Shown: positions 538-30,174 of the stretch, piece by piece | Position numbering within the stretch: position 1 is the stretch's first letter | Layout of the letters: every line of letters begins with the position of its first letter | DNA from: Candidatus Kapaibacterium sp. | GTDB taxonomy: Bacteria; Bacteroidota; Ignavibacteria; Kapaibacteriales; UBA2268 | Reading direction: 5' to 3' | NCBI GenBank assembly: GCA_963665665.1 | Contig: OY762428.1 | Location: forward strand, 128,001-192,000 | Length of the DNA stretch: 64,000 bases | Notes under the pieces: generated by a model | The model's database searches: none | Told to the model about the DNA's origin: nothing | Seen by the model: the letters and a program-made list of their open reading frames with translations, nothing else | Translations under genes and position numbers: made by a program

Positions 538-1053
538 TTAAATGAAACATAGCTCGTAGTAGGCGCATTTTTTGCAAACGCCGGTATTCTTTGGCAGCGC
601 GTCGGGCAGCCCGGCATTTTTCACATCCTCAACGCCTTTCAGAATATTCATCAGTTCGGGAATATCCTCGTCGGCAAGCGTGATTTTATTTTTTTTCTTC
701 AATTCAGGATAGTTCAATTCGCCGGTAAAATCACCAATGCCCTTAGTTTTGAAATACCAGATATAATACCTGAGCTGCCAGCCGTGGGCATCTTCCATGC
801 GGTCGGATTTTTTCACCTCGTGGATAATTTTTTTATCTAAGTCCAACCAGTCAACTTTGACTTTGTCAATCAGGAATTCTTTCTTTTTCCGCATATAATG
901 CGAGCTGTGCAAAAGGTTGCCAAGCGCGACGTTGTCGTGTTCGGCCTCGCAGTTGATATACTTTGCTGAATACCAAAGCTTCCGCTTACAGACAAAGAAA
1001 TAATTAATTTCAGTGCCTGTAGCGGAAAGCTGTAAATATAGTTCTTCGTTCAT
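538..1053 (-). CDS. cas4: CRISPR-associated exonuclease Cas4
   Basis: TGTEINYFFVCKRKLWY, RecB-like D...EVKKS, QLRYY, C-terminal CKKCAYYELC Fe-S cysteines. Confidence 0.96.
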   Translation of the reverse strand: MNEELYLQLSATGTEINYFFVCKRKLWYSAKYINCEAEHDNVALGNLLHSSHYMRKKKEFLIDKVKVDWLDLDKKIIHEVKKSDRMEDAHGWQLRYYIWYFKTKGIGDFTGELNYPELKKKNKITLADEDIPELMNILKGVEDVKNAGLPDALPKNTGVCKKCAYYELCFI

Positions 1054-3335
1054 AAGCTACTAAATTTGTTTTTCGTAATCGAAAGAGGCATATTAATGCC
1101 AATTTCATATTGATAAATATCATTATTCAAAATCAATATTGGTTCAACTTCACTACCAATTTGAATTTTTTGCAGATGGCATAAGCCATTTTTTAAAAGT
1201 TTTTCAATTTGATATAGAGGCAACTCGATTGAATGCTCAATTTTCCATGAGTTAAAATCATTGTAAGAATAGAAGAAATAATTATCTGGTTTGCATATAT
1301 AAATTGATTCTTGAGGCGGAATATCCCTGCTTTTCCAATCAAGATTTTCAAATCCTTCTTTATCAATTTGATTTACAGGATTAATTAGCCAATTATTTTT
1401 AAACATTTCTTTAAGAGTTCTGGCATTTTCTATTGATTTAACATTCTTCTCCTTATTGGTGTTATAAATAGTATTCAATAATTCGACAAGTTTATCAGGA
1501 TTGTATTTTTGCAATTTCAAAAGTTCTTTAGTTTTAGTTAATTCAATAACTGGTTCCCAATTTTTCTCTTTTCTTTGATAAGTTCCATAGGGAGCCGGGT
1601 ATATTTTGTTATCTTTTAAAGGAATTAAAACAAATAAATCACCGATTTTATCATTCTCAAACCTGCATAACCTTCCAGCCCTTTGTGTTAATCTGTCAAT
1701 TGGACATATTTCACTTATCATTATTTCAGCGCTGATATTAATACTCATTTCTCCGATCTGAGTCATAATAGCAATTCCTTGGGCATCATTTCTTTTCCAT
1801 GCTTCTTTACCGAGTTTTGAAATTAATTCATCTTCTTTTTTCTTCTTGTCCGGCTCGGTAAAACGGCTGTGGTATAGAATTGGTTTTACGCCCCTTGCTT
1901 CAAAATAGTCGTAATATTTACGAGCTGAATCAACTGTATTCGCATAAATTATTGCCACTCCTTTTTCAATACACTTGTCCAAAATATCTGAGATTTCGTC
2001 AATATAAGTATATTCGACAATTGATTTGACTTCGAACCGATCTCTATCCGAATCAGATTTATCCTCGTAAATCTGTGGTACATCGTATCCGATTTTTCTG
2101 TATTCTTCAATAACACATTCAGGAAGTGAGGCGCTCATAAGTAAAACGGGGACATTCCAAACTTTTAAAGCTCTGAGCAAGACCAATATATTTTCCTGTA
2201 CAAATTCATCATAGAAATCAGCTTCGTCAATAACAAGACAGGAATTAGCCATATTGAACGTAATATGGTGATGATCCTCTCGGCTCAATGTCAGAGCAGT
2301 AAGCAGATGATCTATTGTGCAAACAGTTGTAGTTGTTTCCAATAATCTTGCAAACTCATGGATAGACTTTGCATCTTCCTTGCGAATTTTATTGTTTTCA
2401 ATATCATCTTGAAATTTATTAAACCATGCGCTTGAATGATACAGTCCCGTTTCCGATAAAGATTCAGTTACGCTGATTGATAATGCTGTTGAAGTAAATC
2501 GGGTAGGCATAGCAATTATTAACCTGTCTGCCCGGCCATTTTGAATTTGTTTCTTTGCCCAAAGAAGTGAAGCGTCTGTTTTTCCTGCTCCTGTTGGTGC
2601 TCTTATAAGCAATAAATCAGAGTCCCATTTTTCATTAACCAGCGTTTGGACTCCTCTTTTATTTTCGAAAGGAAATTCATATACAAATTTTTTAAAATCA
2701 GGAAGCAAACAACCCTCTTCTTTCGCACTGGCTCTTCTGTCTGAAAGTTGCAACAAACTTCGTAAAGCAGCGGTTTCATATTGAACCTTTACTATCCGAT
2801 CAAAAGCATCCAAATCAAAGCATTCCGAATTTTTATTACTTTTAAGATCAAAATATTTCCAGTATTTTATTGCATCTTCATCTATCCACCGGTGTTGATG
2901 TTTTCTGCTTAGTTTTGAATGATGTGCAGCAATAGCAACAAGAACCGATAGTGGCAATTTTTCAATTTGTAATCTTTTAAGGCTTGCAATTTCATGCCTG
3001 ACTTTAGCATTACGAATATTCTTGCCAGCATCATCGCCAACATCTTTTTTAAAATTATCAAAATTCCCTTCATTACATTTCTTCCAAATTTTGTAATGTT
3101 GGTAATCTTTCTGACAGGCTGTTTGCCACTTGGGAGTTTTCTTTCCTTCATCATGATACTTACAAACGAATTCTAATCTTTTTTCAAGTGATTCCCCAGT
3201 TCTTTTATTATACTTACTGAAAGTATTTTGCCTGATTTTCTGAATAATTTTGGCCTCAGATATTACATTGGCAACATGTTCTTCCAATGTAATACCCGAG
3301 GGTTTTGCCAAAAATATTTTTTCTTTTTTAATCAC
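1050..3335 (-). CDS. cas3: CRISPR-associated HD nuclease/helicase Cas3
   Basis: N-terminal LAK..TLEEH and HDEGK HD domain, AAHH, Walker A APTGAGKT, DEAD-like IDEAD, SAS, YHSRF, QRAGR. Likely GTG start at 3335, overlapping the cas7 3' end (ORF track starts at 3353). Confidence 0.96.
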   Translation of the reverse strand: MIKKEKIFLAKPSGITLEEHVANVISEAKIIQKIRQNTFSKYNKRTGESLEKRLEFVCKYHDEGKKTPKWQTACQKDYQHYKIWKKCNEGNFDNFKKDVGDDAGKNIRNAKVRHEIASLKRLQIEKLPLSVLVAIAAHHSKLSRKHQHRWIDEDAIKYWKYFDLKSNKNSECFDLDAFDRIVKVQYETAALRSLLQLSDRRASAKEEGCLLPDFKKFVYEFPFENKRGVQTLVNEKWDSDLLLIRAPTGAGKTDASLLWAKKQIQNGRADRLIIAMPTRFTSTALSISVTESLSETGLYHSSAWFNKFQDDIENNKIRKEDAKSIHEFARLLETTTTVCTIDHLLTALTLSREDHHHITFNMANSCLVIDEADFYDEFVQENILVLLRALKVWNVPVLLMSASLPECVIEEYRKIGYDVPQIYEDKSDSDRDRFEVKSIVEYTYIDEISDILDKCIEKGVAIIYANTVDSARKYYDYFEARGVKPILYHSRFTEPDKKKKEDELISKLGKEAWKRNDAQGIAIMTQIGEMSINISAEIMISEICPIDRLTQRAGRLCRFENDKIGDLFVLIPLKDNKIYPAPYGTYQRKEKNWEPVIELTKTKELLKLQKYNPDKLVELLNTIYNTNKEKNVKSIENARTLKEMFKNNWLINPVNQIDKEGFENLDWKSRDIPPQESIYICKPDNYFFYSYNDFNSWKIEHSIELPLYQIEKLLKNGLCHLQKIQIGSEVEPILILNNDIYQYEIGINMPLSITKNKFSSL

Positions 3336-4245
3336 GGCCAAAAGCTTCGGCAAATGTTTTTACTTCATCACCCTCCGAAGGATCAAATAAGATATTATCT
3401 TCTAAGAATTTCATTGCTTCATCGTAAGCTTTTTGGACACTATTTTCAGTTTTATCATTTCCAATAAAATATTTTGCTCCTTGAGCATTAAGTTCAGCAA
3501 TAATATTTTGTTTTTCCTGATCGTCGGCAATAAAATATCGACTTGCTTTTCTGCCAAGTTTTTCATCAAACACAATTAATACTTCCTGTGGTTCCCCGCT
3601 TACGGCATTTCGTGCCTGGCTTGCGTAGTCATTCATATAACGGGTTGCTTCAAGATAAAGTTTTGCCCTTCGCTTTCTTTCGGAATCTTTGGCATGTTTG
3701 AAATATTTTGTACCGATATTGAAGCCTCCTTCATACTTAAATGCTTTGGAAATACTCAGTCCGGAAATATCCAGAAAGAAGTTCATGTGCATTAAATCAT
3801 ACTCCGAAAATTCCTTTGTCGCTAAGGATTGTTTTTTAGCATCTTCAGTTTCATCGAAACGAATTCTTACTAATAAATCGCGTCCTACATCGCTTGGTTT
3901 TATAGCAACAGCGGGTGTAACAGAAAGCGGCGCAGTTCTCCTTCCGGAATAATCGCCTTTAGACGGATGCATGAATCCGCCCATATCGGAGCGTAAATCC
4001 TTTTCAATTAAATTACTGACCCCATCCCCGTTTGAAACAAAAGTTTCGCCTCTATTTTCATCGAATTCATTCAGTCGGTCAATCGCTGAAAACAGAACAT
4101 GTCGTTGCATCTGACCCGATACATAAACTTTCCCGTCTGGTCTTCTTTTTATTGATGAAGCGTTGCCTAATAATTTTTCACCACCGTTAGCTATGTGGTT
4201 TTCGAAAGGTGCTAATATCGATACTAAGATTCCTTTGATTTTCAT
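3328..4245 (-). CDS. cas7: Type I (PGING-like) Cas7/Csp1 backbone subunit
   Basis: Position between cas8 and cas3. NHIANGGEKLLGNASSIK, YVSGQMQRH and DLRSDMGGFM resemble Cas7/Csp1 of Bacteroidota I-B variants. Confidence 0.88.
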   Translation of the reverse strand: MKIKGILVSILAPFENHIANGGEKLLGNASSIKRRPDGKVYVSGQMQRHVLFSAIDRLNEFDENRGETFVSNGDGVSNLIEKDLRSDMGGFMHPSKGDYSGRRTAPLSVTPAVAIKPSDVGRDLLVRIRFDETEDAKKQSLATKEFSEYDLMHMNFFLDISGLSISKAFKYEGGFNIGTKYFKHAKDSERKRRAKLYLEATRYMNDYASQARNAVSGEPQEVLIVFDEKLGRKASRYFIADDQEKQNIIAELNAQGAKYFIGNDKTENSVQKAYDEAMKFLEDNILFDPSEGDEVKTFAEAFGRD

Positions 4246-4264
4246 TTTTATACTCCAATTTTTA

Positions 4265-5737
4265 TTAATTTACAGTTTCAAAAATAATGTCATCTTCTTT
4301 AATTTCTTCTTCTTTAACTTCTTTTTCTGGCAGATTCTTTAGCCTTGAAAAAGCTATTATCAAATTTTTTGACTGTTCTAACGACAATTCTTCGCTTGCT
4401 GTTTTCTCGAAAAATAGTTCGGCTTCTTTTGGCGCCTCGCTATAAGAAAGCCTTCCTGCTCTGGTAACCGTTTGGGCAATAAGCGCAGTTCCGTCTTTTG
4501 CCGAAAAAGCGGCGCTTTCCAGTTCAATTAATGCCTTAGCTTTAGCCTCTCTGATTTTTTCAGGAGTAGCTCCATCTCCAATTTCATTCTTTGCGGCAAT
4601 ATATGCCACTCGATTAAGCCATCTGCCATAAGCCTTTGCAGATTCGATGATTTCAGGTTTGATTTTTTCCATTTTCTTAAAAAATATGTTGAACAAAATT
4701 TCTGTTTTTTCAGGATATTCGGCTCTAAAGGAAAGAAAATCTTTAAACGCCGGTCGGTTAAATAATTGCAAAAAGCGGCTTGTCATTAGGTCAAATTTTT
4801 GATACTCTGTATTATTATAGGTTCTTCTGTCCTGATTATATAACTTCGAATAATACAGACCGTCAATAATTGTTTTTAATACGCTATCCTTAGCAAGATC
4901 AATAATATAGTGATGAACGCTAAAAGGCTGCGCATCTCCATATTTAATTATATATAAGGTTGAATTCTTCAAACTTTCCAATACTGACTTTGCTAATTCA
5001 GAAGTTTCTTCTAATTTGGCAAATTCACCTATAGCGGCAATTAACCCAATACCACCAAGAATTGAACTTTTAGGAGCATTGGGAAAATTTCCATGATAAA
5101 TACTTGGTCTTTTAGGATAATATTTTTTATCTTTTTCTTCAACCTTCCCAAAATACAACTCTTTTGTGTTTTCCATGATTGTCATTTTTTTAAACAAACG
5201 AACAAAACTTATCATTTCATCAACATTTAAGTCAGGAATTATACAAAAATTATTATAATTGGGAAACGAACTCAAACATGGTTTTATAGGCGTTAGGGTT
5301 GTGACAGTTAACAAACCTCTTGTTTCGAGAGAAGCTTTACTTAATCCTCGAAAATCACTTTTTACAAAAGATAAATACTCACCAGCAATTGGCAACATAC
5401 CTTGTAATACATCTCTTTTACTATCTTTTTTTTGCTCATGAAATATTTTAATTAATTCATTAGCTTTATTCCAAATATTTACAGATTTTTTCGCAGAAGT
5501 AATGACATTGTATGCTAAAAAAATAAAATTTGGAGCATTATTTTTCTTTCGCGTGTATCTATACTGTATCTTATCCTTATTATTATAAGAATCTTTCGGT
5601 TCCATGCTAAAAAATTCCAAACAATATTCCAACTCTTTACAAATATGTTTTTTTGTAATCGCTGAAATATTTTCTAAATGATATTTGTCGCAAAGTATTG
5701 CTTGTGAATATCTACTATATACATTCTCATTCTCCAT
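4265..5737 (-). CDS. cas8: Type I (PGING-like) large subunit Cas8/Csp2
   Basis: About 490 aa between cas5 and cas7. RPSIYHGNFPNAP and FLSFRAEYP motifs, helical C-terminal domain. Likely start MENEN at 5737, overlapping the cas5 end. Confidence 0.82.
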   Translation of the reverse strand: MENENVYSRYSQAILCDKYHLENISAITKKHICKELEYCLEFFSMEPKDSYNNKDKIQYRYTRKKNNAPNFIFLAYNVITSAKKSVNIWNKANELIKIFHEQKKDSKRDVLQGMLPIAGEYLSFVKSDFRGLSKASLETRGLLTVTTLTPIKPCLSSFPNYNNFCIIPDLNVDEMISFVRLFKKMTIMENTKELYFGKVEEKDKKYYPKRPSIYHGNFPNAPKSSILGGIGLIAAIGEFAKLEETSELAKSVLESLKNSTLYIIKYGDAQPFSVHHYIIDLAKDSVLKTIIDGLYYSKLYNQDRRTYNNTEYQKFDLMTSRFLQLFNRPAFKDFLSFRAEYPEKTEILFNIFFKKMEKIKPEIIESAKAYGRWLNRVAYIAAKNEIGDGATPEKIREAKAKALIELESAAFSAKDGTALIAQTVTRAGRLSYSEAPKEAELFFEKTASEELSLEQSKNLIIAFSRLKNLPEKEVKEEEIKEDDIIFETVN

Positions 5738-6428
5738 ATTCAATCCTAGTATTAATCCAACCTTCACTGTTTCCTAAATATGTTATATTGTATTCGAATA
5801 AATGATTTTCAACTAATTCGAACAAATCAAAATCAAACCATAGTCTAAAAACAAAACTATGGTTATAATAATAATATTCTCTGTTTGTAGGTTTAGTATA
5901 ACAGAATGGATAATTTCGATGATTTTGATTAAAATATAATCCGAAATTAAAATCCTTATTTTTTTCTAATCTTCTTAGGTTCGGTATAAGTCGATAATCG
6001 AGATTTGGAGTTCCCTTAGGATGTGTATCAGAAATTTCATTATCTCCGGCTCTTCTTAAACATCTGCTCCACAGATCAATAAAAGAAAAATATTCGGGAA
6101 TTTCAACAGATTCAATTTCAAAATAATCCATAAGCAAGGGAATATAAGTTGAGCCGTGTTGATATTTTATATATGGAACTTTTTGCTTTTTTCGCAATTT
6201 TACTAAATCTTTTACAATTGCCATTCTATCTGCAATATCAATATGCCACCCTAAGATATTTTCAAACAAGCCACAAAGCATTTTTTTTGACGGGCTTTTC
6301 AAGGACTTGTAGAAAGATCCCGGTAAGTCGTTAACCATTGATAATGGAGCTAAGGGATCGATTATCAATTTCACTTTCTTTTCAGGTTTTGGTATTTTTT
6401 CCAATATAGATAAATTTATTTCTTGCAT
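5727..6428 (-). CDS. cas5: Type I (PGING-like) Cas5p
   Basis: PLAPLSMV..LPGSFYKS...PSKKMLCGLFENILGWH, C-terminal YLGNSEGW. AGGAG RBS before ATG at 6428. Confidence 0.88.
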   Translation of the reverse strand: MQEINLSILEKIPKPEKKVKLIIDPLAPLSMVNDLPGSFYKSLKSPSKKMLCGLFENILGWHIDIADRMAIVKDLVKLRKKQKVPYIKYQHGSTYIPLLMDYFEIESVEIPEYFSFIDLWSRCLRRAGDNEISDTHPKGTPNLDYRLIPNLRRLEKNKDFNFGLYFNQNHRNYPFCYTKPTNREYYYYNHSFVFRLWFDFDLFELVENHLFEYNITYLGNSEGWINTRIEYGE

Positions 6429-6436
6429 AATAACTC

Positions 6437-7093
6437 CTATAATCTTACAGCCCCGAAACCTGCCCCGGCACTCTCGCCAACGCCTACGTTGTAGGCAAAG
6501 CGGATCAGTTCGGGAGCGCCCTCGAGTATCACGGGGCACAGGTTGGCTTTGTTTTGAATATTATTGAAATTGACAATTTTTGTTTTCGCGCGCTGGTAGT
6601 CACGGTCGAATCGTATTCTAATATCGCCGCTCAGCCCGGCCAGCTTCATTTTGCTCTGCATTACTTCGGTCATTCGTTCGTCGGCTGCAGGATTATTCCA
6701 CTCCAGGTGCTCGCATCCCTTATCGGTTTTCCGGCGCACCAGGGCAGGGGAAGCCAGGTGCAGGTATTCCCTTTCCGAGAACTCGGGCCTGCTGCCGATA
6801 ATTATCTCCTGCGCGCGCATCCCGTTGAACATCGTCGGATCATCTCTTACCCCGGTGATAATGCGCTCCAATAAATCTCCCTCGTGCGCCGATATAAAGA
6901 AATTTGCGCCCTCAGGGAAGTTTAGCCCCTTCTTTGCCGGACGTGCTCCGCTCAGCCAGCTTATTGAGTAGAGCGATATGCCGTCGTGCTCTATATTCTC
7001 GCCAAGCCATTTGTGCAGCGCCCCGACCATTTTCTGTTGGTAATCGTAATGTACAAGCTCAGTGTTCCGGCTTGTTTGGAAATATAATCTCAA
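6437..7093 (-). CDS. cas6: CRISPR-associated endoribonuclease Cas6
   Basis: YDYQQKMVGALHKWLG, HDGISLYS, C-terminal G-rich loop GVGESAGAGFG. GGAGG RBS before TTG at 7093. Confidence 0.95.
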   Translation of the reverse strand: MRLYFQTSRNTELVHYDYQQKMVGALHKWLGENIEHDGISLYSISWLSGARPAKKGLNFPEGANFFISAHEGDLLERIITGVRDDPTMFNGMRAQEIIIGSRPEFSEREYLHLASPALVRRKTDKGCEHLEWNNPAADERMTEVMQSKMKLAGLSGDIRIRFDRDYQRAKTKIVNFNNIQNKANLCPVILEGAPELIRFAYNVGVGESAGAGFGAVRL

Positions 7094-7807
7094 TTGCGCC
7101 TCCAAAATTATAAATATTAGATGACTTGATATCAAAACCATGTATATCAAGGTTAGTTCAAGCCTCTGATTGCGACTTGATAATATTATATAAATAGTCA
7201 GTTAACTGATGACATCTGAATGTGATATCAATCCGGTAGCTGGATCAATTTCATCGAAAAATATTAAAATACAAGCATAAGAAAATCTCCCACAAATAAT
7301 ACCCCTCTTAAAATAAGATTTCTGCCCGATAAGCAGGAAATAAGACTATTTTTTTTCTTTTCACTGATTTTATTATTATATTATACAAAAAATAAATTAT
7401 AATTCCAATTATTTTGATATTTTTTGAAGTTAGTATTTTCTTCTGAATAAGTTTTTTTCCTGATCTTTATAAATTGAAGATTTTAAGCTAATAAATTTGA
7501 GAAATTGTCAGATAATGATAAAATATGAAATACAAAAGGAATCCAGACTGATTTTATTATTTTATTATTATTCTGAGAATTTTGAAATTCAATAGCATGA
7601 AAAAATTGTATTTTGCCATCTTAAAAACTGGGGTAAGAACTCTTGATCATTATCGATAATATTGAAGAGAATTGTCTTATATTGGATTTATGATAATGTT
7701 TACAATTATTGAATATAAAAAATATTGTTTAGAATAATGTTATATATAATTTATAATTATTTTATAAGTATATATAATATATAGAGTAATGATATTATTA
7801 CTACAGT

Positions 7808-8467
7808 CCCGAAGGGAGGGCTTTGAAGAAGAATAAGGCAACAACAGAATAAAACATCAGTACTTTGCTTCCGGACAAGGCAGCAATGAAGCAAAACATT
7901 GCTGCAATAGTGTCGACCAAGAGTTCATTATCTTCAAACATCGGTGCATCGATTTGGAACAATGCGTCATTATCTTCAACCAGGGCGGCAATGACTTTGA
8001 CCAAGGCGTCATTGACTTCGACCAAGGCGGCAATAGGTTAAACCTTTGGTACTTTGCTTCTGAACATCGGTGCATTATTCCTGACCCCTCCCAAACCCTC
8101 CCCAAAGGGGAGGGCTTTGAAGAAGAATAAGGCGGCAATGAAGCAAAACATTGCTGCAATAGTGTCGAACAAGACCTCAATACCTCTGACCCCTCCCAAA
8201 CCCTCCCCGAAGGAGAGGGCTTTGAAGAAGAATAAGGCGGCAATGGATTCGAACAAGAGTTCATTATCATCAAACATCAGTACATTGATTTGGAACAATG
8301 CGACAATAAAGCAAAACATTGCTGCAATAGCTTCAACCAAGAGTTCATTATCTTCAAACAAGGCGGCAATGACTCCGACCAAGGTAGCAATGACTCCGAC
8401 CAAGGCATCAATGGAATCAACCATTGGTGCATCGGCTTCGACCCCTCCCAAACCCTCCCCGAAGGGG
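7808..8467. repeat. 21-nt-period modular tandem array with embedded 42-nt hairpin units (left part, interrupted by IS)
   Basis: Units from 7825, e.g. GAAGCAAAACATTGCTGCAAT, AGTGTCGACCAAGAGTTCATT, ATCTTCAAACATCGGTGCATC, GACTCCGACCAAGGCATCAAT. Register is maintained through the CCCTCCCCRAAGGRGAGGG hairpins. Confidence 0.9.
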
Positions 8468-8475
8468 CATATGCG

Positions 8476-8709
8476 CTAACTTAGTGAAAATAAGTAATTC
8501 ATACTACTTTGCCTTTTTCGATGTCCTTCTTTTAGGCAATTAGAAACATCATCCCAGTTGTTAATACATTGATACAAAGTAATACCGGGACTGATGATTT
8601 TCAATAAAATATCTTTAACAAATACATTTTCACGCCATTGTGATGTACTCCTTTTATCATTCTCTTTTATTAAACCTGTAGCCCCAGGGGGAAAAACGCT
8701 CACCTTCAT
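8476..8709 (-). CDS. Possible frameshift extension or small second ORF of the IS4 element
   Basis: 77-codon +1-frame ORF overlapping the transposase end at a T5C5 run, with its stop codon inside the TIR. Confidence 0.4.
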   Translation of the reverse strand: MKVSVFPPGATGLIKENDKRSTSQWRENVFVKDILLKIISPGITLYQCINNWDDVSNCLKEGHRKRQSSMNYLFSLS

Positions 8710-9769
8710 CGATAATAGCCTGAGTAAGGAGAGCTGTGATCATCTTAGCATAAAGCCACGCTCGTGCAGAGTTTTTATCTTTTTTTGGTAAATGCCCCAA
8801 GCCAAATTGACTTTTTAGTTTTTTAAATGAAATTTCAACCTGCCATCTCATTCTATATAATTCTAAGATATTATTAGAAGATATATCATTAATCAAAGAA
8901 GTCACCAAAACAATATAATCATTAAGTCCTAAAGCTGTAGAACTGATTGTCTGTTGTTTTCTAGCAAAATTCTTTTTTGCTTTCTTTCTGGATAACTCAG
9001 CTTGCTCCTTGCTTTTTTTGATAGCACATATACGTACAGGAATCTTTTTATTTTTTGAGGAGGAGGAGGAAATATAAAATATTTTGTCAAATATTTGATC
9101 TAACTTTAAACTTTTTAATTCTTTAATAATATCAACTTTATCATTTTTACTATTATATAGTGTAAAACCTTTATGCTTATATCTGACAACAAAATTTGCT
9201 TTCTTTCCGAGAATTTCTGAAATACCCTTATAACTGCAATATGCTCTGTCAATTAAAAAAAGATCAGAAGAGTTAATTTTGAAATTAGATATAGACTCAC
9301 CGACTTTTGGGCTGGTAATAATAAATTCGTCACACTTGAGGTTGAACAGATTATGGCTGTAATGAAGTCTCCAGTCAGTACCTGTTGACCCCGGCTCAGT
9401 AACAACAGACGCATCGATACATCTTACATTGAAATCCGACAGCCATTCTGGGGAATCTAATGATATCCCCCTATTATGAATCAATCCTAATGCAATCCAG
9501 CGAAGCCAATCAGCAGACGTCCTCATTTTTTTTAATAACGCAACATCTGATATATCTATATTTCTTTCATATTTAAGCTTAGTAGCAACCACCCTCATAG
9601 AATGCCCCGTTGCTACATGCATAAGTATTGCTCGAAGTTGCTCAGAAGGTGAATCAAATGCCCTGCGACGTTGGAAAGCCTGGAGTTCTTTAGCCTTTAA
9701 TTCCCATCCCAAAGGAAGTAAGGTTGTAACTACATCCCATTCTTCTATATGCTTGTTGTACTTTTCCAT
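8657..9769 (-). CDS. IS4-family DDE transposase
   Basis: IDAS, DRAY and YRMRWQVEISFKKLKS (YREK signature) motifs. Enclosed by TIRs. Confidence 0.93.
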   Translation of the reverse strand: MEKYNKHIEEWDVVTTLLPLGWELKAKELQAFQRRRAFDSPSEQLRAILMHVATGHSMRVVATKLKYERNIDISDVALLKKMRTSADWLRWIALGLIHNRGISLDSPEWLSDFNVRCIDASVVTEPGSTGTDWRLHYSHNLFNLKCDEFIITSPKVGESISNFKINSSDLFLIDRAYCSYKGISEILGKKANFVVRYKHKGFTLYNSKNDKVDIIKELKSLKLDQIFDKIFYISSSSSKNKKIPVRICAIKKSKEQAELSRKKAKKNFARKQQTISSTALGLNDYIVLVTSLINDISSNNILELYRMRWQVEISFKKLKSQFGLGHLPKKDKNSARAWLYAKMITALLTQAIIDEGERFSPWGYRFNKRE

Positions 9770-9823
9770 TTACAAATATAAAAAAATTATATATAAAAAT
9801 CAAACACTAAGTTAGCGCTTATG

Positions 9824-9955
9824 CCCCGAAGGGGAGGGCTTTGAAGTAAAACAAGGCGGCAATAAAGCAAAATATTGCTGCAATAGTGTCGACCATCGGT
9901 GCATTGCCTTCGACTCATCCTACCTCCCCCCGACCACCTCCTTCGGAAGGAGGGA
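9824..9955. repeat. Continuation of the 21-nt modular array after the IS
   Basis: GAAGTAAAACAAGGCGGCAAT, AAAGCAAAATATTGCTGCAAT, AGTGTCGACCATCGGTGCATT, then a CCTCCTTCGGAAGGAGG hairpin. Confidence 0.85.
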
Positions 9956-26329: not shown

Positions 26330-27346
26330 ATGAAAAAATTTGAACTTCTCGGAAAAAAACCAACGCGCCACGGATTTGGCGAAGCTCTGGCCGAACTTGG
26401 CGAAAAGCATGACAACGTGGTTGTTCTTGGCGGTGATATCACCGGTTCTGTAATGACTTCATACTTCAAAGAGAAATTCCCCGAAAGATTCTTTTCCTGC
26501 GGTATAGCCGAGCAGAATGCAACAACTATAGCAACTGGCCTGGCTTTATCAGGGAAGATAGCTTTCTTTTCCAGCTACAGCGCTTTCGCGGCGTTCAGGA
26601 ACTCCGATCAGCTCCGCATTTCTGTTTGCTATAATAATGCAAATGTAAAAATCGGAGGGGGGCATTCAGGTATTACAGTCGGACCTGACGGCGCTACCCA
26701 CCAATCGCTTGAAGAAATTTCATTTCTCAGGGCATTACCAAACATGACTCTTGTTGTTCCCTGCGACTTCCAGGAAGCCAAGAAAGCAACATGGGCGACA
26801 GGAGAGATGAACGGCCCTGCATACATCCGTTTCGGACGTTCGGCAATCCCCATGTTTACAACCGGGGAAACGCCATTTGAAATAGGTAAAGCAGAAGTTT
26901 TCCGCGAAGGAAATGACCTTGCTATCGTAGCCTGCGGCCTGATGGTTTGGGAAGCACTTATGGCAGCCGAAGAACTTGAAAAGAAACACGGCATACAGGC
27001 AAGAGTAATTAATAACCACACTATCAAGCCTATCGACGTGGAAACAATTACCACAGCCGCGAGGGAATGCGGCGCTATCGTTACTGCCGAGGAACACCAG
27101 GTTCACGGCGGGCTTGGTGCGGCTGTTTCAGAAGTTGTTGTTAAAAATCAGCCTGTTCCGATGGAATTTATCGGAGTTCCTGATCGCTTCGGCGAGAGTG
27201 GCGAACCCGACGAACTTCAGCAGGCATTCGGCCTGAACTGGAAATCTGTTTATGCCGCAGCCCTGAAAGCCATCGACAGGAAGAAAAACGGAAGCAGCGG
27301 TTTCCGTAAACTCACCGAAATGGAAGAGTATTCCGAAGGAATGTAA
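26330..27346 (+). CDS. Transketolase, C-terminal (pyrimidine-binding/C) subunit
   Basis: TRHGFGEAL, GIAEQN, GPDGATHQ, YIRFGR, TIKPID, EEHQ..GGLG, FGESG. Confidence 0.95.
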   Translation: MKKFELLGKKPTRHGFGEALAELGEKHDNVVVLGGDITGSVMTSYFKEKFPERFFSCGIAEQNATTIATGLALSGKIAFFSSYSAFAAFRNSDQLRISVCYNNANVKIGGGHSGITVGPDGATHQSLEEISFLRALPNMTLVVPCDFQEAKKATWATGEMNGPAYIRFGRSAIPMFTTGETPFEIGKAEVFREGNDLAIVACGLMVWEALMAAEELEKKHGIQARVINNHTIKPIDVETITTAARECGAIVTAEEHQVHGGLGAAVSEVVVKNQPVPMEFIGVPDRFGESGEPDELQQAFGLNWKSVYAAALKAIDRKKNGSSGFRKLTEMEEYSEGM

Positions 27347-27494: not shown

Positions 27495-28430
27495 AGCTCC
27501 GTAGGAGCGGAATTTTTGTAGATAATGTTTACATTGTGATTATTAAAAGCTCCGTAGGAGCGACAGAGTCTTTTGGCCATGTCGCCCCGAAAAAATTCCC
27601 CTCGTTGAGGGGTGGCGAGCGCAGCGAGTTCCCGACACGTCGGGACAGGCTGGGGTGGTTTCTTTTTCTTAGTCTTCGGGACGTTGCGTCTTTATCCACG
27701 AGCTAAAGCACGTGGCTATTGATTTTGACGATTATAAGGCTGGAAGGTCATTCTGAGCGCCAGCGAAGGATCCATTCTTCATAAATTATCCGCAAGGAAG
27801 ATGGATTCTTCGGTCTCAAGCTCCGTCAGAATGACGGATGGGAATGTCCCCCGCTGGCGGGGGTGTCCGAAGGACGGGGGTGGACTTCCGGAAAATTCCC
27901 CTCCCTTGGAGGGGATTAAAGGGGTGGTTTCTTTTTCTTAGCCTCCGCACCTTGCACATTTATCCACGAGCTAAAGCACGTGGCTATTGAACTTGACGAT
28001 GGTAAAACTGCATGTCATTCTGAGCGCCAGCGAAGAATCCATTCTTAATGCATTCCCTGCAAACGAAAATGGATTCTTCGGTCGCAAGCTCCTTCAGAAT
28101 GACGGATGGGAATGTCCCCCGCTGTCGCCGACGTGTCGGGAAAGGACGGGGGTGGACTTCCGGAAAAATTCCCCTCCTAATGTAGGAGGGAATTACAGGG
28201 GTGGTTTGCTTTCTTTGCCTTCGCACCTTGCACATTTATCCACGAGCTAAAGCACGTGGCTATTGAATTTGACGATTATAAAGCTGGGATGTCATTCTGA
28301 GCGCCAGCGAAGAATCCATTCTTATTACACTATCTGCAAACAAAGATGGATTCTTCGGTCGCAAGCTCCGGAAGCCTGCACCTGCCTGCACCGATTTATC
28401 GGTGACGTGTCGGGGAATGACAACATAATA
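27495..28430. repeat. BIME-like mosaic: three ~270-bp tandem units of REP-like palindromes
   Basis: Anchor TTTATCCACGAGCTAAAGCACGTGGCTATTGA at 27691, 27959 and 28235. Each is followed by GTCATTCTGAGCGCCAGCGAAG.ATCC...GGATTCTTCG..GAATGAC and preceded by a CCCCTC..GAGGGG hairpin. Confidence 0.92.
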
Positions 28431-28445
28431 CCTCCTTCTCCGGCT

Positions 28446-28657
28446 CTTACTCCCCGTTATTCCACCCCAATGAACAGGCCGCCGGCCTTAATTCCCCAAC
28501 CTGTGGTCTCAATGAATCGAATAATTTCCTTAATTCAACGCTGTTTTGAACCAGAATCCTGATGTTTGGGCTAATTGCTTGGATTGCAGGGCTTTAAACT
28601 GCCTTGGCCGGAGGTATTGAACTACTGTTTGGCCTTAATGTAGTGAAATTTGGCCTC
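28446..28657. repeat. Degenerate 21-nt-period array (CTYAAT-like anchor, variable remainder)
   Basis: Units at 28466, 28487, 28508, 28529, 28571, 28634 and 28655 begin CCCAAT/CTTAAT/CTCAAT/CTTAAT/CTAATT/CTTAAT/CTCATT. Confidence 0.65.
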
Positions 28658-28918
28658 ATTGAACACTTGGTTGGCTTTACTGAACACTTGGTTGATCTTA
28701 CTGAACACTTGGTTAATCTTACTGAACACTTGGTTGATCTTACTGAACACTTGGTTGATCTTACTGAACACTTGGTTGACCTTACTGAACACTTGGTTGA
28801 TCTTACTGAACACTTGGTTGACCTTACTGAACACTTGGTTGGCTTTACTGAACACTTGGTTGACCTTACTGAACACTTGGTTGATCTTACTGAACACTTG
28901 GTTGATCTTACTGAACAT
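28658..28918. repeat. Homogeneous 21-bp tandem repeat, about 12.5 copies of ACTGAACACTTGGTTGA(T/C)CTT
   Basis: Directly visible. Translates as (TEHLVDL)n, (LLNTWLI)n or (FSKINQV)n. Confidence 0.97.
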
Positions 28919-28925
28919 GTTCTTT

Positions 28926-29370
28926 GCCTCCGACCAAGAGTTCAATGACTTCGACCAAGGCAGCAATAACTTCGAACAAGGCATCAATAACTTCGAACAA
29001 GGCAGCAATATCATCAAACATCGGTGCAATAGCTTCAAACAAGAGTTCATTATCATCAAACATCGGTGCATCGATTTGGAACAAGACAGCAATGAAGCAA
29101 AACATTGCTGCAATAGCTTAGAACATCGGTGCAATGACTCCGACCAAGGCATCAATAATTCCGACCAAGGCGTCAATGAAGCAAAACATTGGTTCAATAG
29201 CTTCAACCAAGAGTTCATTATCTTCAAACAAGGCGGCAATGACTCCGACCAAGGCGTCAATAAAGCAAAACATTGCTGCAATAGTGTCGAACAAGGCATC
29301 ATTAAAATCAAACATCAGTGCAATGGCGTCGACCATTGTTACATTGATTTCAAACATCGGTGCATTGCCG
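28926..29370. repeat. 21-nt modular array, same unit vocabulary as 7825-9905
   Basis: 21 consecutive units, consensus N6-RA(A/C)CA-W-N5-CA(A/T)T. Confidence 0.92.
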
Positions 29371-29651
29371 CTGCCCCTTCCTACCTCCCCCCGGCCACCT
29401 CCTTCGGAAGAAGGAGGAGTTAATTCTATGATATTTAATTTCTTATCCCCTCCTAAAGTAGGAGGGGAATACAGGGGTGGTTTGCTTTCTTTGCTTCTGG
29501 TCAGTGCGCCATTATCTTCAAACATCGGTGCATTGCCTCTGCCCCTTCCTACCTCCCCCCGGCCACCTCCTTCGGAAGAAGGAGGAGTTAATTCTATGAT
29601 ATTTAATTTCTTATCCCCTCCTAAAGTAGGAGGGGAATACAGGGGTGGTTT
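29349..29651. repeat. Direct repeat (~133 bp, period 168 bp) of hairpin-rich unit
   Basis: CAAACATCGGTGCATTGCC..CCTCCTTCGGAAGAAGG..CCCCTCCTAAAGTAGGAGGGG..GGTGGTTT at 29351 and 29519. Confidence 0.92.
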
Positions 29652-29757: not shown

Positions 29758-30174
29758 TCAAATATCCAGAATAATATTAACTTCAAAATTTCCATTATCA
29801 TTTCTGATAATTTCCGCACCATGATAAGTTACGGCTTTCACATCATCATCGAAACCATCCACAGGAATTCCGGATAATTTGAAAATACAGTTTTTATCAT
29901 TTGGAAAGTTTATCCCGTCAGGAATTGCTATAACATTATAAGAGTGCATGAATGACAATGCGTCAGAAAGGAAATCGACAATCAACGCTGAACAGTCTAT
30001 TGACTTGATGTTAAATTCCTCGCTTACATGGCTTACAACATTTTCGGGCAGATCATTATGAAACATAACTTTGCAAAGCCCATCAAGTGCCGAGGCAAAA
30101 AGCCCTGCAAGTGAATCAGATTCAGAATGGATTATAAGATCTGCTGTGTGCGAAAGAAGTTTATATTTCTGCAT
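29758..30174 (-). CDS. Archease
   Basis: YKLLSHTADL, VKAVTYHG, terminal LDI. Confidence 0.93.
   Translation of the reverse strand: MQKYKLLSHTADLIIHSESDSLAGLFASALDGLCKVMFHNDLPENVVSHVSEEFNIKSIDCSALIVDFLSDALSFMHSYNVIAIPDGINFPNDKNCIFKLSGIPVDGFDDDVKAVTYHGAEIIRNDNGNFEVNIILDI

Follow-up and report, generated by a model that had tools for sequence, protein, structure and literature searches.

The block at 28446..29651 of the window (the whole 64,000-nucleotide stretch of DNA that was analysed) is, on balance, probably a member of an interspersed repeat family that is high in copy number and specific to its lineage, a MITE-like, non-coding mosaic with internal minisatellite arms. The block is most likely repeat DNA rather than a spacer array or an ordinary protein gene, and its closest known relative in kind appears to be BrickBuilt of Porphyromonas gingivalis. 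The block is non-genic, as had been read from the sequence alone; it lies between a transketolase-like gene that ends at 27346 and an archease gene at 29758-30174 on the minus strand (Pfam). Neither Rfam at gathering thresholds nor a tRNA scan of the window returned anything, and sigma-70-like promoters were not enriched (7 versus 6.8 expected).

The sequence-only reading had described the block as a tripartite 21-nt array, and the parts, their copy numbers and their period were recovered, whereas the spacer-like nature of the first part and a register shift before the third were not. Upstream of the array, the leader part at 28290..28445 carries a REP-type nested hairpin (GTCATTCTGAGCG...GAAGAATCCAT / ATGGATTCTTC...GAATGAC; inverted repeat I4), whose GTCATTCTGA motif occurs 197 times in the genome. 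Alignment of 53 copies showed that a short conserved stretch precedes part (i) and that conservation extends upstream of this part. Part (i), the conserved leader (28446..28655, plus strand), consists of ten degenerate 21-nt rows, recognised by their recurrence and their lag-21 periodicity, and its stop codons are conserved across frames and across copies. The most plausible view is that these rows are fossils of the common ancestral unit, having dropped out of homogenisation, and that its active copies make up the other parts of the block. Part (ii), the left arm (28656..28917, plus strand), is the homogenised expansion that had been described: TRF detected 12.3 copies of a 21-nt unit with 94% matches at 28660-28917, and the row print likewise displayed homogenised units of TTACTGAACACTTGGTTGATC. 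The homogenised variant differs locus by locus, each locus having its own.

At the foldback centre (28913..28922), direct reading of the sequence revealed a perfect palindrome, GAACATGTTC, in which each strand carries an ATG. Part (iii), the right arm (28929..29369, minus strand), comprises 21 rows of shuffled modular 21-nt units that share their unit types with the 7.8-kb array, in agreement with the earlier description. These units are related to the part (ii) unit in reverse complement. The tail (29349..29651, plus strand) contains 1.8 copies of a 168-bp repeat at 99% (TRF; inverted repeats I3 and I7), which upholds the proposed 8x21 spacing of the terminal hairpin repeats. Each tail copy includes two GC-rich hairpins, CCTCCTTCGGAAGAAGGAGG and CCCCTCCTAAAGTAGGAGGGG, and a like tail was seen in other copies of the element. 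Terminator-like sites numbered 13, compared with 3.2±2.2 in shuffles. A second array of the same family is present in the window at 7857..8480; it is composed of part (iii)-type units and 42-nt hairpin modules, is devoid of parts (i) and (ii), and has an IS4-like insertion sequence (DDE_Tnp_1, Pfam) interrupting it at a hairpin.

The element is a foldback, because the part (ii) units are the reverse complement (approximately 70%) of the part (iii) units. Inverted repeats I2, I5, and I6, which join the two arms, are 76-89% complementary. The predicted fold had an MFE of -148.5 versus -112.9±4.9 for shuffled sequences (z -7.3), and 123 of its 172 pairs were formed arm to arm. The long inverted arms of short tandem repeats that characterise a foldback are present, and the central module is optional. 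A conserved AT-rich central module of 546 bp (26x21), with stops in all six frames, is present across the genome in 17 full-length copies; its length is 546 bp in most of these copies (about 13 by coordinates), in some of them despite gapped alignments. Palindromy was absent from the AT-rich module (0.40 versus 0.369±0.026 in shuffles).

The entire 210 bp of part (i), stops included, recurs 53 times in the genome at 84-95% identity, and the earlier description of its units as nearly unique and spacer-like is thereby refuted. About 60 arrays occupy 47,974 bp, or 0.88% of the genome, and the reversed-genome control produced 0 clusters. The copies are built in the same order, from leader through array and inverted array to tail; the arrays are spacer-less, with a leader that is conserved in 53 copies and a hairpin tail that recurs. 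The genes flanking the 53 copies are convergent in 23 cases, tandem in 23, and divergent in 7, and no orientation bias relative to replication was detected (22 of 53 copies, p = 0.27). Inside the arrays, 42-nt GC hairpin modules are placed in register, and an IS4-like element is inserted at such modules in at least three arrays. Short GC-rich imperfect palindromes clustered in 3' intergenic regions, the hallmark of REP-type sequences, were found, and the hairpin families occur 26-197 times in the genome. A Y1_Tnp gene (genome 1821817-1822161) was considered as a RAYT link and rejected, being flanked by GCTCCGTAGGAGC-type hairpins of a different family.

All 44 rows between 28446 and 29369 fall on one unbroken 21-nt lattice. 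The 2-nt register shift that had been placed before part (iii) is only apparent, and it arises because the unit type of part (ii) continues in part (iii) as its reverse complement. Genome-wide, adjacent unit pairs were in register in 1284 of 1290 cases; all 6 breaks were at hairpin modules, with shifts of -4, -5, -5, +1, -1, and +9, five of which are not multiples of 3. Part (i) is significantly 21-periodic: its lag-21 identity was 0.397 versus 0.253±0.043 at other lags and was matched by none of 500 shuffles, the top three lags being 21, 63, and 42. The corresponding value for the AT-rich module was 0.490 versus 0.371±0.029, again matched by none of 500 shuffles. The top autocorrelation lags of parts (i) and (iii) were 21, 42, and 63, followed by 50 or 30; a heptanucleotide STRR-type repeat with a 7-nt unit was rejected, as lags 7 and 14 were outside the top four in both parts. 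The core A.TG-N6-TG.T is fixed in parts (i), (ii), and (iii), in opposite orientations, and the variation among units has no period-3 pattern. It had been argued that different sequence families with one period would make the 21-nt length itself functional. The premise fails, since parts (i)-(iii) are one family with one core, and their shared period can be explained by common descent and whole-unit slippage. Two observations still leave room for a possible DNA-level role of the period: the periodicity crosses sequence that is unable to encode protein, namely part (i) with its conserved stops and the 546-bp module, and the lattice is respected by every kind of insertion (hairpin modules of 42 nt, the tail of 168 bp, and the module of 546 bp).

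In the layout on which the interspersed-repeat reading builds, a leader (the REP-type hairpin plus part (i)) is followed by the part (ii) array, the inverted part (iii) array, and the GC-hairpin tail. Both arms, which would derive from a single ancestral 21-bp unit, either meet at the short palindrome or have the 546-bp AT-rich module between them, and a single strand of the element is predicted to fold back on itself. The whole element would have been copied to approximately 53-60 intergenic sites, and the arrays inside each copy may gain or lose entire units through slipped-strand mispairing or unequal recombination. Part (ii) would be homogenised locally, and part (iii) unit types may be swapped between loci via gene conversion. 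Because all of these processes would act on whole units, the 21-nt lattice would persist even in the fossil part (i) and in the AT-rich centre. Copies would survive where they are least harmful, at the 3' ends of genes and among other REP-type hairpins, and the long open frames would be a by-product of a stop-poor unit. Alignment of the 53 leaders and an inverted-repeat scan revealed neither a terminal inverted repeat conserved across copies nor a target-site duplication, and we therefore infer mobility only from copy number and dispersed positions. In the window copy, the left edge and the tail hairpin match over 14 nt at 86% (I10 and I11); this match is absent from the 53-leader consensus.

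BrickBuilt is described by Klein et al. (2015, PMC4596501) as a leader, a 23-nt minisatellite, and a tail, present in P. gingivalis as 19 intergenic copies that make up 0.44% of the genome, and its predicted ORFs were not seen in proteomics. The two elements are alike in belonging to Bacteroidota-group bacteria, in having a conserved leader, a spacer-less tandem array, and a conserved tail, and in being present as tens of dispersed, strictly intergenic copies of at most about 1 kb. They also share a repeat number that varies among copies, a limited host range, and ORFs called by annotation pipelines. The unit is 21 nt in the block element but 23 nt in BrickBuilt, and heptad ORFs are possible in the former because of this length. 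The block element has two inverted arrays, which make it a foldback, whereas BrickBuilt is described with one array; shuffled modular unit types, in-register 42-nt hairpin modules, and the optional 546-bp AT-rich centre also distinguish it, and its copies revealed no conserved terminal inverted repeats. Its 53-60 copies constitute 0.88% of the genome, compared with the 19 copies and 0.44% given for BrickBuilt.

Several other classes of repeat resemble the element in part. The REP/BIME sequences of enterobacteria and the BOX sequences of pneumococcus are mosaics of hairpins and variable-number internal modules, are located in 3' intergenic regions, and are targets of specific insertion sequences; the block element is likewise a hairpin mosaic and an insertion-sequence target, and it is enriched between convergent genes (23 of 53 copies here). 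The internal modules of REP/BIME and BOX are present in few copies and form no inverted long arrays, in contrast to the 20-100 units and long inverted arrays of the block element, and the hairpins on either side of the RAYT-type transposase gene in this genome belong to another family than those of the element. The foldback (FB) transposons found in Drosophila have long inverted arms of short tandem repeats, a variable arm length, and an optional central segment, all of which are found in the block element; unlike in the eukaryotic transposons, no transposase or loop ORF was seen in it, and its conserved outer ends are not mutually inverted. The MIRU-type minisatellites of mycobacteria are dispersed intergenic tandem units with short ORFs whose stops and starts abut or overlap, and the block element has the same features. 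However, MIRU units are 40-100 bp long, are located within operons, and have no foldback, leader, or tail, whereas the block element has 21-nt units and all three of these structures. In iteron and operator arrays, units of roughly 20 bp recur every two helical turns, a size and phasing similar to those of the block, but these arrays occupy one or few loci and have a known binding protein; the block element occupies about 60 loci, and no binding protein was found here. Word searches of the literature returned nothing on such arrays or on repeats of Kapabacteria.

The range of the family is narrow. Part (i) was detected in none of 40 relatives, and a two-unit pattern with 488 matches in the source genome had none in 400 genomes of the phylum. 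A family-specific pattern had 0 matches in a collection of species representatives, and a metagenome scan with the part (i) pattern also gave 0 matches. Metagenome matches to the two-unit pattern were rejected, as they were either single chance matches or an unrelated 21-nt satellite on (TG)n contigs with no BLAST match to the genome. The relatives examined are distant from the source (archease 30-38% identical), and the source genome is 5.46 Mb; in the first set of 40 relatives, genome sizes were 1.9-4.6 Mb with three exceptions. A relative of approximately 94% identity is present in the second sequencing study as short contigs. Arrays of 21 nt that matched the core over three units were found at 18 loci of other genomes, against about 0.002 expected by chance, although they share the core by construction because the search pattern was built from the core of the source genome. 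According to the record titles, nine of the 18 loci, spread over six genomes, belong to Bacteroidota and one to Kapaibacterium, and two more come from one bin; each of the other genomes with such arrays has 1-3 of them. In the Flavobacterium array, five conserved codons never vary at wobble positions and one codon varies freely.

The main rival, which we regard as possible but doubtful, is that the type A element is a minus-strand operon encoding two translationally coupled heptad-repeat proteins in overlapping ORFs; it implies some 35-50 hypervariable, coiled-coil-like gene pairs in the genome. ORF1 would occupy part (iii) in frame -2, with an acidic, hydrophobic product of heptads like V-I-D-A-L-V-E and a start at an A-P-M-F unit, and ORF2 would occupy part (ii) in frame -1, with heptads like S-K-I-N-Q-V-F or A-E-Q-D-I-S-K. 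In the window, candidate ORF2 (28622..28918, minus strand) is intact and would encode 98 aa, MFSK(INQVFSK)n...EAKFHYIKAKQ, from an ATG in the palindrome to a conserved stop in part (i), where both the stop and the C-terminal peptide are conserved. Candidate ORF1 (28908..29357, minus strand; heptads IDALVGV and IAALFED) has a stop at 28908-28910 that overlaps the ORF2 start, but it is interrupted by a TAA at 29118-29120. The ORF1 stop overlaps the ORF2 ATG (ATGTTCAGTAA or ATGAGTAA) in 26 of 53 copies: the J1 junction, in which the ATG is 8 nt upstream of the -2 stop within the palindrome GAACATGTTC, accounts for 20 copies, and a 5-nt overlap at a second junction for 6 more. These two junction sequences, however, amount to only two independent observations. 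At the palindromic junction, a GGAGG precedes the ATG of ORF2 by 8 nt, in a genome that uses Shine-Dalgarno sequences moderately (25.8% of starts versus 9% background). In almost every type A copy, frame -1 stays open across both arms and the hairpin modules until it reaches a conserved terminal stop. In contrast, TTAG and TTAA units place frame -2 stops in many copies, and ORF2 of the type B copies lacks a start codon (ATG, GTG, or TTG) where it borders the AT-rich module, though its frame looks most protein-like there.

Measures of coding constraint were divided. The ratio pN/pS among distinct units was lowest in the two proposed frames (0.49-0.67 and 0.68, versus 0.64-1.34 in the others), but values of 0.5-0.7 represent weak constraint, and unit variation and entropy show no period-3 pattern. 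Codon-usage log-odds were 0.072 for part (iii) in frame -2 and 0.104 for type B part (ii) in frame -1, compared with 0.205±0.105 for real genes; type A part (ii) nevertheless favoured frame +2 (0.285) over -1 (-0.161), so that the best frame differs between homologous arrays. The 21-nt periodicity also continues through parts that are untranslatable. Rows 7-9 of part (i) contain too few variable sites for minor-allele phase.

In protein searches, neither the frame -1 product nor the ORF of the Flavobacterium array had homologues, and frame -2 had a single array-like match. Pfam coiled-coil matches were sub-threshold only, the one match above cut-off being a low-complexity hit of ApoB100_C on a TEHLVDL repeat in frame +2. 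An exhaustive protein search with the Flavobacterium array ORF gave 397 matches, which were set aside; the six inspected were generic heptad repeats in unrelated proteins. ESM Atlas queried with ORF2 (recognition 844) returned nothing at >=0.9 and was uninformative. Several frames are open on both strands, as the ORF list and translations confirm, and the earlier caution about ORF calls in this block was right. Compared with random substitutions, stops were depleted in several mutually overlapping frames on both strands; this depletion reflects the fixed core nucleotides and therefore says nothing about which frame might be coding. A comparison of open frames among the 18 foreign arrays provides no evidence either, because the search pattern nearly forbids frame -2 stops.

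A further explanation, which we consider unlikely, is that the arrays have a function as non-coding DNA and form a phased lattice, with one site per two helical turns, for a predicted DNA-binding protein. Such a protein might be nucleoid-associated or a cooperative regulator, and the arrays might act as insulators, sinks, or organisers. The low-copy arrays of Chitinophagaceae, Flavobacterium, and Kapaibacterium would then be normal sites of a protein common to Bacteroidota-group bacteria, and the source genome would represent a runaway, foldback-forming expansion, spread over about 60 loci, with a role in organising or insulating the chromosome. A core that is fixed while adjacent positions vary freely is consistent with this proposal, as are a 21-bp lattice respected by all insertions, an AT-rich module kept at 546 bp in most of 17 copies, and core-matching arrays at 18 loci elsewhere, with conserved Flavobacterium codons invariant at wobble positions. 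However, the analysis identified no candidate for the binding protein, the core lacks dyad symmetry, the foreign matches owe their core to the construction of the search pattern, just 1-3 arrays are present in each other genome, and whole-unit slippage preserves a lattice without selection. A phased guide-RNA hairpin locus was also considered and dropped, there being no Argonaute (Piwi) in the genome.

An assembly artefact is a very improbable explanation of the block. The locus is not spanned by any contig from four public runs; short-read contigs from two studies break at 27516-27524 and 29623-29643, and the counts of 12 and 21 units are those of this assembly only. In all four runs, from both studies, however, the depth of the repeat bins was mostly about 15- to 140-fold above that of the unique flanks, with a dip in the 29320-29420 bin, indicating that the repeat family is real and high-copy. 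The 53 copies with distinct flanks in a single-contig genome also argue against an artefact. Least credible of all is a CRISPR-like array that acquires spacers and whose captured sequences would be recorded in part (i): the part (i) units do differ among themselves and a cas6 gene is located beside the other array of the window, but part (i) is one fixed block at 53 loci, the row print displays no repeat/spacer alternation, the array beside cas6 belongs to the same 21-nt family and is IS-interrupted, and phage and plasmid collections contained no match.

If the ORF-pair reading were true, one genome would contain dozens of hypervariable two-gene heptad-repeat modules, a new kind of protein family, with proteins read from both strands' versions of a single ancestral unit. 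If the block is instead a copy of a non-coding interspersed repeat, as we favour, the family would surpass in size and elaboration every minisatellite-bearing interspersed repeat seen so far in bacteria, with about 60 foldback elements derived from one 21-bp unit. The element would be a clean system for studying array homogenisation within loci and shuffling between loci in bacteria. Such DNA misleads gene callers, as open stretches of 100-320 codons occur in four of the six frames. Under either reading, the 21-bp arrays with a common core in several Bacteroidota merit a systematic survey.

The block at 28446..29651 is real and statistically solid: a foldback repeat of 21-bp units that is specific to its lineage. 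Pfam places a transketolase-like gene on one side of it and an archease gene on the other, and searches of the window with Rfam (gathering thresholds) and a tRNA scan gave no match. When rows were printed from 28446, a single 21-nt lattice extended over 44 rows, from 28446 to 29369. Part (i), the leader (rows 0-9, 28446-28655), consists of ten dissimilar units; part (ii), the left arm (rows 10-21), is a homogenised run of TTACTGAACACTTGGTTGATC (TRF, 12.3 copies, 94% matches); row 22 contains the perfect palindrome GAACATGTTC (28913-28922); and part (iii), the right arm (rows 23-43), comprises 21 modular units that fall into a few repeatedly used types. The sequence-only reading had described the homogenised run and the 21 modular units, and both were borne out, with a TRF copy number of 12.3 against the approximately 12.5 claimed. 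Likewise, the hairpin repeats that it placed at the end of the block with 8x21 spacing were recovered as a tail repeat of 168 bp (8x21) bearing two GC hairpins (TRF, 1.8 copies at 99%). The 2-nt register shift that it saw before part (iii) disappeared: there is no net shift, all 44 rows share one lattice, and the seeming shift arises because the units of part (iii) are related to the part (ii) unit as reverse complements. Both kinds of unit contain the core A.TG-N6-TG.T, and the arm segments of the window copy are 76-89% complementary as inverted repeats. A single strand of this copy folded arm on arm (123 of 172 pairs arm-to-arm), with an MFE of -148.5 versus -112.9±4.9 in shuffles (z -7.3); the minus-strand fold gave z -4.0.

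The 21-nt periodicity of part (i) was checked separately and held. Lag-21 identity was 0.397 versus 0.253±0.043 at other lags, a value reached by none of 500 shuffles, and the top lags were 21, 63, and 42; for rows 0-7 alone, the lag-21 value was reached by 12 of 500 shuffles. Two controls, one gene and the neighbouring 268-bp repeat, showed no 21-nt signal. Genome-wide, 1284 of 1290 adjacent units were in register, and the six breaks all fell at variant hairpin modules, five of them being not multiples of three.

A BLAST and motif census identified approximately 60 arrays of 127-2101 bp that together occupy 47,974 bp (0.88%) of the genome, a single contig of 5.46 Mb; the reversed genome yielded 0 clusters. 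The 210-bp block of part (i) occurs in 53 copies at 84-95% identity that have its stop codons in common, and their conservation extends upstream into a REP-type hairpin. The units of part (i), read at first as spacer-like and nearly unique, therefore belong to a block that recurs whole. In the type A layout the arms are joined directly, via GAACATGTTC or via ...GAGGTTACTCATTATC..., and in type B arms of diverse units are parted by a conserved AT-rich module. This module has 17 full-length copies (82-92% identity), is exactly 546 bp (26x21) by coordinates in about 13 of the 17, some despite gapped alignments, and is closed by stops in all six frames; it is itself 21-periodic (lag-21 identity 0.490 versus 0.371±0.029, a value that none of 500 shuffles attained). 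The arrays also contain 42-nt hairpin modules, placed in register. Each locus has its own homogenised variant of part (ii), and the unit types of part (iii) are common to, and shuffled among, loci.

We consider the block non-coding as the most likely reading, by a modest preference. The six-frame stop map confirmed that several frames are open on both strands, as first noticed. In nearly all type A copies, a conserved stop in row 8 of part (i) bounds an open frame -1 that spans the two arms together with the hairpin modules; frame +0 is open save for TAA in hairpin modules. Frames +2 and -0 are open in part (ii) only, and frames +1 and -2 in part (iii) only; the latter pair have stops in common, located at TTAG and TTAA units, and the TAA/TAG at 29118-29121 in the window is an example. 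Depletion of stops relative to random substitutions was rejected as a coding sign: several overlapping frames were depleted at once, which reflects the fixed core rather than translation. Codon-usage log-odds, with 1403 long ORFs as the training set, gave +0.205±0.105 for real genes and -0.56 to -1.46 for off-frames. The top frame in part (ii) was +2 in type A (0.285) and -1 in type B (0.104); part (iii) gave 0.072 in frame -2 and 0.015 in frame +0, and every frame of the AT-rich module fell below -1.1. Thus, the best codon-usage frame differs between homologous arrays. No period-3 pattern was found in unit entropy. Among distinct units, pN/pS was lowest in frame -1 for part (ii) (type A 0.67, type B 0.49) and in frame -2 for part (iii) (0.68), with 0.64-1.34 in the remaining frames, implying weak constraint at best. 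No homologue of the frame -1 product was found, and the frame -2 product had one array-like match, on another contig. Coiled-coil matches in Pfam were all sub-threshold, and one low-complexity match exceeded the cut-off (ApoB100_C on the TEHLVDL repeat, frame +2).

A pair of heptad-repeat ORFs on the minus strand, ORF1 in part (iii) (frame -2) and ORF2 in part (ii) (frame -1), is an unlikely but substantive alternative. The stop of ORF1 lies past the ORF2 ATG in 26 of 53 copies, by 8 nt in 20 of them and by 5 nt in 6, the window copy having the 8-nt form; however, the two junction sequences involved amount to only two independent observations. At the palindromic junction GGAGG stands 8 nt before the ORF2 ATG, in a genome where Shine-Dalgarno sites are used moderately (at 25.8% of crude starts versus 9% background). 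ORF2 is intact in the window (28622-28918, minus strand, 98 aa), but ORF1 is interrupted by TAA there, and type B copies have no ATG, GTG, or TTG at the expected ORF2 start. A putative protein-binding lattice is a further alternative, still to be considered but improbable. A spacer array was rejected, part (i) recurring whole in 53 copies and phage and plasmid collections having given no match, and so was an assembly artefact.

Contigs from four DNA runs of two studies end at 27516-27524 and restart at 29623-29643, so that the unit numbers given for the locus are provisional. In all four runs, the summed depth of the repeat bins exceeded that of unique flanks mostly by a factor of about 15 to 140 (mostly ~1600-4200 versus 34-45 in run X1; ~135-360 versus 2.5-5 in run X4), with a dip in the 29320-29420 bin. 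The flanks from the second study differ at 13 of 225 positions, indicating that the family is also present in a close relative.

Klein et al. (2015; PMC4596501) describe BrickBuilt of Porphyromonas gingivalis as a 23-nt minisatellite of 1-22.8 units set between a leader and a tail, with 19 intergenic copies of 84-991 nt making up 0.44% of the genome, and state that its pipeline-predicted ORFs went undetected by proteomics. In architecture and lifestyle the present element matches it, but it differs in its 21-nt unit, its two arrays arranged as a foldback, the shuffling of its unit types, hairpin modules kept in register, an optional AT-rich centre, and a roughly threefold higher copy number.

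Part (i) DNA was found in none of 40 relatives. A degenerate two-unit pattern gave 488 matches in this genome versus none in 400 genomes of the phylum (control pattern, 0), and a family-specific pattern gave 0 matches in the species-representative collection. A degenerate three-unit pattern matched 18 loci versus about 0.002 expected by chance, the latter being our estimate from the information content of the pattern. Nine loci in six genomes are labelled Bacteroidota: Chitinophagaceae/Chitinophagales including Ilyomonas (7 loci, 4 genomes), Flavobacterium, and Tannerellaceae; the others are one Candidatus Kapaibacterium, two from bin KTt_bin-0590, and six from other phyla. Because the pattern was built from the core of this genome, the core common to these loci is partly imposed by the search, and the comparison of their open frames is likewise biased. 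The two-unit pattern gave 2-17 matches in 1-3 arrays in each of five genomes checked, and the array in Kapaibacterium is flanked by convergent genes, with REP-type hairpins next to it. Arrays of 21-nt units with the core of the present genome were seen at low copy in other genomes, at loci L149, L165 (Chitinophagaceae MAG chromosome OY970196.1), L161, L164, L152/L159, and L162. Two unit families alternate in blocks at the Chitinophagaceae loci; the reverse frame in Flavobacterium sp. RSB2_4_14 (L161) gives G-I-E-x-L-F-G some 17 times over, a repeat with fixed codons and a single free one; and in Candidatus Kapaibacterium NRBC_bin_5 (L162) a second, unrelated 21-nt array of CGAAGACGGAAGACTTAAAAA (1666-1790, ~5 units) abuts the first. 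Another unrelated 21-nt satellite, ATAGGCACATTGAACACGACC, with dozens of units adjoining (TG)n microsatellites in one metagenome contig series (L082, L083, L095, L047, L077), is probably eukaryotic and showed no similarity to this genome.

By crude ORF calls, the 53 copies are flanked by convergent (23), tandem (23), or divergent (7) genes, and their orientation showed no bias relative to replication (22/53, p = 0.27). Terminator-like hairpins were enriched in the region (13 versus 3.2±2.2); sigma-70-like promoters there were not (7 versus 6.8). The GC hairpins of the element belong to families present 26-197 times genome-wide. The sole RAYT-like Y1 transposase gene (genome 1,821,817-1,822,161, L023; 155-aa open frame, Y1_Tnp 75.7 bits) has GCTCCGTAGGAGC and GCCGCCCCTACGGGGC hairpins on either side, a family distinct from those of the element; some array tails likewise contain inserted copies of these hairpins. 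At window 27652-28370, a 268-bp unit made of three REP-type hairpins is repeated 2.6 times at 85%. The first of these hairpins also occurs as the tail hairpin of the 21-nt element, which means that the arrays form part of a wider mosaic of hairpin modules.

REP-targeting IS elements are a known kind of hairpin-targeting IS. An IS4-like element at window 8460-9830 (DDE_Tnp_1 transposase 8657-9769, minus strand) recurs at GC hairpin modules of at least three arrays, among them the 7.8-kb array (window 7857..8480) and those near genome positions 996,194 and 2,213,492, and directly follows CCCCGAAGGGG in the first two, which suggests that it is hairpin-targeting. A minus-strand ORF run (538-7150) ends in a Cas6-family gene (6437-7150; Pfam Cas_Cas6_C at 1e-11, the check covering Cas6 alone), followed by a 0.7-kb AT-rich stretch (7150-7860). 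TRF found no CRISPR array in the whole window, and the place beside the Cas6 gene that one might occupy is taken by the 7.8-kb array and the IS. The genome measures 5.46 Mb versus 1.9-4.6 Mb in 37 of the 40 family/order relatives first examined (4.9-5.6 Mb in the other three). Its richness in IS, REP-type hairpins, and 21-nt arrays suggests that repeat DNA has expanded greatly in this lineage.
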